From assembly GCF_000026545.1 (NCBI RefSeq), contig NC_011601.1: a stretch of 64,000 nt of DNA; one strand, written 5' to 3'. This DNA comes from Escherichia coli O127:H6 str. E2348/69 (GTDB lineage Bacteria > Pseudomonadota > Gammaproteobacteria > Enterobacterales > Enterobacteriaceae). The position numbers and the translations under genes are program-made. The notes under the pieces are model-generated. The model searched no databases and was not told the origin of the DNA. It saw nothing but the letters and a program-made list of their open reading frames with translations. This document shows positions 23,189-24,066 of this stretch, piece after piece (position 1 is the first letter of the stretch; the number at the start of each line of letters is the position of its first letter).

Positions 23189-23196
23189 ATATTCAG

Positions 23197-23234
23197 AAAG
23201 CCCGAATCATTACTGATTCGGGCTTTCGTCGTTT
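23197..23234 (+). terminator. Rho-independent terminator after aspV
   Basis: AAAGCCCGAATCA-ttac-TGATTCGGGCTTT hairpin followed by T-rich tail. Confidence 0.7.
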
Positions 23235-23286
23235 AAGTTCCAGAGAAAAATAGCCACGAAACTTATCTCGTAGCCATATTCACCCT

Positions 23287-24066
23287 CTAACGAAATGTGA
23301 ATTCATCCGCATCCTGCCATGCCGGAAACTTTTCTCTATATTCCCGCAATGCCATCATCGATAGCTCCGCATCAATGCGCGTTGCCTGATGCGCGTCGGC
23401 AGTAGCGATAATCTCGCCTTGTGGATTAATCACCCGGCTGTCACCGCGATAATGGCAGCCGTTGCCATCGCTGCCGACGCGATTACACCCCGCTACATAC
23501 GCCTGATTCTCAATCGCGCGGGCTGTCAGCAATGCCTGCCAGTGCAGAGAGCGCGGTGCAGGCCAGTTGGCAACGTAGATGGCGAGGTCATAATCGTTGA
23601 GATTGCGCGACCACACCGGAAAACGTAAGTCGTAGCACACCAGCGGTAAAATACGCCAGCCGCGCCATTCCACAATCACTCGCTCATTGCCCGCTTTATA
23701 ATGCAGATGCTCATCTGCCATGCGGAACAGATGACGCTTATCATAAAAATGTACCGTGCCGCCCGGCTCAACCAGCAAAAAGCGGTTAACCGAATCAGAC
23801 TCCGTTTGTAATGCAACACTGCCAGCAATCAGCGCATTGCACTGCTGCGCTTTAGCGGTCATCCAGTTCACTACGTCATCTTGTGCTAGCGACGAAGCTG
23901 CCGCTTCCATGGCAAAGCCGCTGGTAAACATCTCCGGTAGAACGATCACATCGCGCCCGGTAATACCTTCCAGTTGACGATCAAAATGGCGCAGGTTGGC
24001 AGGACCATCCATCCACACCAGTGGTTGCTGCAAAAGCGTAATCTTCAAACCAGGCACGGTGTACAA
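23287..24066 (-). CDS. yafV: Omega-amidase YafV (nitrilase/CN-hydrolase superfamily)
   Basis: 259-aa ORF; nitrilase-family Glu-Lys-Cys residues (VCYDLRFP); lies directly next to aspV here. Confidence 0.85.
   Translation of the reverse strand: MYTVPGLKITLLQQPLVWMDGPANLRHFDRQLEGITGRDVIVLPEMFTSGFAMEAAASSLAQDDVVNWMTAKAQQCNALIAGSVALQTESDSVNRFLLVEPGGTVHFYDKRHLFRMADEHLHYKAGNERVIVEWRGWRILPLVCYDLRFPVWSRNLNDYDLAIYVANWPAPRSLHWQALLTARAIENQAYVAGCNRVGSDGNGCHYRGDSRVINPQGEIIATADAHQATRIDAELSMMALREYREKFPAWQDADEFTFR

Follow-up and report, generated by a model that had tools for sequence, protein, structure and literature searches.

The aspV-yafV intergenic region of Escherichia coli E2348/69, an unoccupied site at a tRNA hot spot

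The aspV-yafV spacer of E2348/69

The tRNA gene aspV and the convergently oriented yafV gene of the EPEC strain Escherichia coli O127:H6 E2348/69 are separated by exactly 98 bp, which contain two convergent hairpins and no ORF. The comparative analyses presented here indicate that this spacer is very probably the native intergenic region of the two genes, kept from an Enterobacteriaceae ancestor, and that E2348/69 carries an unoccupied allele of a tRNA hot spot. The native spacer would be composed of an intrinsic terminator for aspV on the + strand and a terminator for yafV on the - strand, and the allele found in most other E. coli would be an occupied one, holding either a type VI secretion system (T6SS)/Rhs island or a larger mosaic, such as the 100-kb PAI-CFT073-aspV.

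The window, the 64,000-nt stretch of DNA that was analysed, was annotated by transferring the E2348/69 RefSeq annotation to window coordinates (offset 13999). Within it, the dnaQ-aspV and yafV-ivy-fadE core flanks adjoin each other (Table 1). The tRNA-Asp(GUC) gene was identified by ARAGORN and by Rfam (67.7 bits) and is annotated as tRNA-Asp in E2348/69. The yafV ORF (23287-24066) contains the RefSeq CDS and ends in a TAG stop codon at 23287-23289, with ivy and then fadE beyond it. The original prediction, made from the sequence alone, had described aspV as followed directly by yafV, with the segment known from K-12 missing and about 100 bp containing a terminator hairpin in its place; both points are borne out, with the addition of the second hairpin.

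Table 1. Coordinates of the features of the aspV-yafV locus, in window positions
Feature	Coordinates	Strand	Basis
dnaQ, DNA polymerase III epsilon, left core flank	22248..22979	+	NCBIfam NF004316, E 5e-118; RefSeq annotation
Sigma-70-like promoter match upstream of aspV (TTGACG, 17-18 nt spacer, TAATAT)	23055..23084	+	consensus match only
aspV, tRNA-Asp (GUC)	23112..23188	+	ARAGORN; Rfam RF00005
aspV-yafV spacer, 98 bp, unoccupied hot-spot site; without ORF, island or IS remnant	23189..23286		
aspV intrinsic terminator (predicted): 14-bp stem and 4-nt loop (23196-23227), then interrupted U tract CGUCGUUU	23196..23234	+	fold, covariation
Allele-specific stretch without alignable K-12 counterpart; enters last three yafV codons	23196..23299		alignment, 104 bp
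yafV terminator-like hairpin: stem 23277-23250, then TTTTTCTCTGG	23240..23277	-	terminator scan
yafV, 2-oxoglutaramate amidase, right core flank	23287..24057	-	NCBIfam NF007757, E 6e-164; RefSeq WP_001118016.1

Lying directly 3' of the tRNA, the aspV hairpin has a perfect, GC-containing stem in which 14 of 14 positions pair, and the whole 98-nt spacer folds with an energy of -29 kcal/mol (z = -5.6 against shuffled sequences). The U tract of the hairpin is interrupted (TTTCGTCGTTT), and a simple terminator scan gave no call for it. In an alignment of the post-aspV region from 19 Enterobacterales loci, 94% of the cells of the hairpin are paired, and 7 of the 14 pairs present compensatory changes on both sides, such as C-G in E2348/69 against U-A elsewhere, or A-U against G-C, a value that none of 500 shuffles reached. 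Judged by its structure and its conservation, this hairpin is the predicted native terminator of aspV. It resembles the rho-independent terminators of stand-alone tRNA genes in its perfect 14-bp stem, its T-rich tail and its covariation, but differs from them in the interruption of its T tract.

On the opposite strand, the terminator scan called the hairpin located just past the yafV stop, which has the tail TTTTTCTCT, and transcription would be expected to terminate at both hairpins. The yafV hairpin is kept in a diverged Escherichia locus (L007, see below) and is replaced in all the occupied alleles examined (K-12, AR_0077, CFT073 and E. albertii). No remnant of an island, IS element or pseudogene was found in the 98-bp spacer, whose sole similarity to the K-12 insert is a chance-level match of 11 nt (E 0.2) in the end of ISEc1. 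An Rfam scan of positions 22900-24300, at E values of up to 1, accepted only the tRNA; two sub-threshold Thr_leader matches on the hairpin were judged to reflect chance similarity to a terminator stem.

A 108-nt query enclosing the spacer is found in full in 756 of 5,426 complete E. coli genomes, and dnaQ, aspV, yafV and ivy are contiguous over 2.8 kb of colinear sequence in 875 of them. Annotation confirms the empty allele in IAI39 (phylogroup F) and in ST131 (phylogroup B2), the spacers of which differ from that of E2348/69 at 0 and 1 nt, respectively. That a collapsed or mis-joined assembly hides a real insert in E2348/69 is an extremely improbable explanation, in favour of which we found no supporting point: positions 22000-24800 are 100% identical in three independent complete E2348/69 assemblies, and the adjacency is therefore not an assembly artefact; the same spacer recurs in a further 756 complete genomes; and a published comparison found none of the 29 ORFs of an aspV island in E2348/69 (PMC2941450).

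Occupied alleles and their junctions

The aspV-yafV interval of K-12 MG1655 (NC_000913.3) spans 2,411 bp and holds yafT, ykfM and the pseudogenes yafU and yafF, in agreement with the gene order of the original prediction but short of the approximately 3 kb that it had assigned to this segment. The alignment to K-12 across dnaQ-yafV, proposed there as a check, yields two precise break points. Homology ends at window position 23195, 7 nt beyond the tRNA, and restarts at 23300, within the last three yafV codons; YafV accordingly terminates in ...DEFTFR* in E2348/69 and in ...DEFRLW* in K-12. Outside of 23196-23299, the flanks of the two strains are 96.7-97.7% identical. Since the intervening 104 bp have no counterpart in K-12, this strain is devoid of both native terminators. 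The two loci therefore share the same dnaQ-aspV and yafV flanks, but K-12 differs in its 2,411 bp of T6SS remnant and ISAs1-family fragment, and in its RLW* rather than TFR* ending.

At least 80% of the K-12 segment, usually its positions 1-2095, is present in 2,975 of the 5,426 complete genomes, and the gene order in genomes holding it is yafT, ykfM, a full-length yafU, and then hcp, vasL, tssM and further genes. The K-12 yafT-ykfM-yafU-yafF segment is therefore no discrete mobile insert but the eroded left part of a type VI secretion island, and these K-12 "genes" are T6SS-island debris. The K-12 deletion begins within yafU and ends within an ISAs1-family element; yafF is the fragment of that element, and it ends the segment about 20 nt from yafV. 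The K-12 allele is what remained of an island after this internal deletion. This assignment agrees with the ORF sharing reported in the LF82 genome paper, in which LF82 PAI I, a T6SS island of 29 ORFs at aspV, has three ORFs in common with MG1655 and none with E2348/69, a strain stated to have no T6SS (PMC2941450).

The right junction is identical in type in K-12, AR_0077, the Z0117EC0005 remnant, CFT073 and E. albertii; the AR_0077 T6SS/Rhs island measures 40.8 kb and PAI-CFT073-aspV 100 kb. In all of them, an ISAs1-family end, placed by comparison with the ISEc1 copies at ydcC and yhhI, lies approximately 20 nt downstream of the yafV stop, and yafV ends in RLW* or RLL*. We considered whether the IS end itself encodes the K-12-type RLW* terminus of YafV and rejected it, as the stop codon precedes the canonical ISEc1 end (…CCCTGG) by 19-20 nt; the last three yafV codons differ in every genus. 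An 11-nt string, CGGGCTTTCGT, is shared by the 3' arm of the aspV hairpin and the right junctions of K-12, AR_0077 and CFT073, and raised the possibility of a target-site duplication or of microhomology used in a deletion. This idea was rejected because the string is part of the ISEc1 terminus and also occurs at the unrelated ISEc1 copies of ydcC and yhhI.

Left junctions are of two kinds. The K-12 and CFT073 alleles diverge 6-7 nt past the CCA end of aspV, and the AR_0077-type islands (89 genomes) retain the native aspV terminator and begin after CGTCGTTT. Occupied alleles begin on the left at one of two points, 7 nt beyond the tRNA in the K-12 and CFT073 types or directly behind the native terminator in the AR_0077 type, and are bounded on the right by the ISAs1-family element.

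The original prediction had also proposed looking for a short direct repeat of the aspV 3' end in genomes that carry the insert, a test with a negative outcome: none of the occupied alleles examined contains such a repeat of 16-24 nt, even when 2-3 mismatches are allowed. The search covered the K-12 insert, the 40.8-kb AR_0077 island, the Z0117 remnant, the left-end portions of the CFSAN051542 and STEC17-190 islands, the retrieved portion of the E. albertii island, and 82 of the 100 kb of PAI-CFT073-aspV (all but CFT073 312-330 kb). Furthermore, no tyrosine integrase is annotated next to aspV in K-12, AR_0077 or CFT073, where the annotated neighbours are yafT, tssA/impA and a DUF4942 pseudogene, respectively; the sole site-specific integrase seen in CFT073 sits 22 kb inside the island. 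Given the absence of an aspV 3' repeat, the occupied alleles of today are unlike simple integrase-type insertions. The same absence of a tRNA 3'-end repeat has been reported for Salmonella SPI-20 at aspV (PMC2907695).

With respect to P4/CP4-type islands, the E2348/69 locus resembles an attB site in that the native 3' flank of its tRNA gene is uninterrupted, and the left junctions of K-12 and CFT073, 6-7 nt past CCA, fall at the usual crossover place of such elements. In contrast with those islands, the occupied aspV alleles examined have neither a 3'-end repeat nor an integrase beside the tRNA, and the AR_0077-type island begins after the terminator and not at the tRNA. Occupied alleles bounded by an IS end and not by tRNA-derived repeats fit the view of Touchon et al., who argued that hot-spot content spreads by recombination in the flanks (PMC2617782).

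The aspV locus has been listed as one of the tDNA hot spots in most frequent use (PMC7545054) and been called "a known hot-spot" (PMC2907695). The islands assigned to it in E. coli and Salmonella include LF82 PAI I (T6SS), the 37-kb T6SS island of EDL933, the T6SS of strain 042 (Ec042-0210-0226), PAI-CFT073-aspV, and Salmonella SPI-6 and SPI-20. All share with the locus described here the chromosomal site between dnaQ-aspV and yafV, but in E2348/69 this site is empty, consistent with the published absence of LF82 PAI I ORFs and of a T6SS (PMC2941450). Both the hot spot and the absence of the island from E2348/69 are thus already on record, and the finding is in this respect correct but ordinary; a literature search on aspV together with yafT returned nothing relevant. 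What the present analysis provides is a base-resolution picture of the intact aspV-yafV region, which can serve as a clean reference for island boundaries at this hot spot.

Ancestry of the empty arrangement

Loci were collected with a YafV query, using one genome per species, which yielded 80 outgroup loci. The distance between aspV and the yafV stop is 75-125 bp in at least 10 genera, as observed in Leclercia, Pseudocitrobacter, Pseudescherichia, Kluyvera, Siccibacter, Entomohabitans and other Enterobacteriaceae. The same empty site is found in L007, a locus labelled "E. coli" that is 5-8% diverged along 18 kb (about 6%) and whose spacer is colinear with that of E2348/69 over its whole length, with both hairpins kept. 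The possibility that L007 is a typical E. coli in which yafV is a local import was rejected, since the divergence extends along all 18 kb. Citrobacter, Enterobacter and Superficieibacter have from 0.7 to more than 10 kb inserted at the site, and these genera keep the aspV hairpin wherever aspV falls within the fetched sequence. Searches with T6SS, YafT, YkfM and ISAs1 proteins (tblastn) against the 80 loci gave matches in E. albertii and, beyond this species, a single short Rhs-like match of 55 aa in Superficieibacter (L017).

The adjacency of aspV and yafV in other genera, together with the homologous spacer in an Escherichia lineage about 6% diverged, argues that the empty arrangement is ancestral. 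On these comparisons, the adjacency is ancestral for the family and the site is a hot spot family-wide, with the parsimony reconstruction inside the genus Escherichia resting on few genomes. The suggestion, already present in the original prediction, that E2348/69 displays a tRNA hot spot in its ancestral, unoccupied form thus gains support from the outgroups, the L007 spacer, the covariation of the hairpin and the ST131 flanks.

As a separate observation on the inserted loci, the yafV-aspV interval of Citrobacter youngae and Citrobacter sp. Cu233 (L011 and L014, 10766-11460) measures about 690 bp in place of about 100 bp. In the E. albertii type strain, NBRC 107761 (L008, 10772-17266), the sequence directly downstream of yafV comprises an ISAs1 fragment, an Rhs gene with an ORF of 1,424 aa, and vgrG.

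Within phylogroup B2, ST131 differs from E2348/69 at no more than 7 positions per 500 bp (at most 1.4%) to the left and to the right of the junction, as far as about 24700, and encodes an identical YafV protein (WP_001118016.1). CFT073, a B2 strain with an occupied allele, differs from E2348/69 by about 2% or less per 500-bp bin (about 1% overall) on the left of the junction and by 2.4-4.8% on its right. The sharing of the empty allele by E2348/69 and ST131, at 1% divergence or less on each side, argues for inheritance over recent deletion. The simplest reading of the four genomes compared is that B2 inherited the empty allele, passed on vertically to E2348/69, and that the occupied allele of CFT073 would have arrived with a foreign right flank. 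Such an arrival corresponds to the spread by flank recombination proposed by Touchon et al. (PMC2617782), and lineages would exchange occupied and empty alleles through homologous recombination in the core genes on either side.

An empty site keeps no record of past occupancy, as precise excision and replacement through flank recombination lead to the same sequence. An ancestor of E2348/69 might hence have held an aspV island that was cleanly removed, either excised in a site-specific manner or displaced by the empty allele of another strain, taken up through homologous recombination in dnaQ and yafV-fadE. We regard this secondary loss as unlikely, even though the contrast between the two CFT073 flanks marks the locus as recombinogenic, spread of hot-spot content by flank recombination has been argued (PMC2617782), and occupied alleles are both the majority state in E. 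coli, judging from the frequency of the K-12 segment, and found in E. albertii too. E2348/69 and ST131 are separate B2 lineages that share the empty allele in closely similar flanks, and with the right flank of CFT073 as the outlier, it is simpler to place the import in CFT073. Moreover, the occupied alleles examined have no att-like direct repeats and so offer no evident substrate for precise excision, and the E2348/69 spacer is colinear with that of the 6% diverged Escherichia lineage. Retention of the native spacer thus stays the favoured reading.

The right junction of E. albertii is homologous to that of K-12 and is about 16% diverged over 88 nt, compared to about 12% for the flank; being about as diverged as its flanks, it suggests that both states may predate E. 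coli. A more tentative reading, which we consider possible but the less probable outcome, is that the empty and occupied states are both older than E. coli and form a long-lived T6SS-island presence/absence polymorphism, kept across species by homologous recombination in the flanks and not by repeated site-specific integration. It is based on the empty allele with both terminators being common to the approximately 6% diverged Escherichia, and on the ISAs1 right junction being common to E. albertii.

Further features of the window

Across yafV-ivy-fadE (23300-27300), E2348/69 and CFT073 are 1-5% diverged per 500-bp bin and about 2.8% overall, and ST131 matches E2348/69; in this profile, the region looks like a recombination tract tied to the island allele. 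Divergence between E2348/69 and CFT073 is 0-0.6% over 27800-29300. Further downstream, divergence from CFT073 per 500-bp bin is 3-7% over 32300-36800, which holds the lfhA remnant, lafU and dinB, and 5-7% over 32300-35300. These values are far above the B2 background and suggest another imported or ancient allele.

Two toxin-antitoxin loci also differ among the strains compared. The yafQ-dinJ pair is absent from E2348/69 (window 29673-29983) and from CFT073, and lies between dpaA (yafK) and yafL in AR_0077, as in K-12. A hicB/hicA pair is located at 30790-31417, flanked by yafL and by the truncated pseudogene of a lateral-flagellar flhA (lfhA), and has no CFT073 counterpart, with no alignment over about 30730-31520.

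The window contains a second tRNA-Asp gene, distal to an rRNA operon (14888-14964), which is one base off aspV, with A versus G at position 60 in the T loop (GTTCGAATCC versus GTTCGAGTCC). In CFT073, the 3' ends of both copies carry G here.
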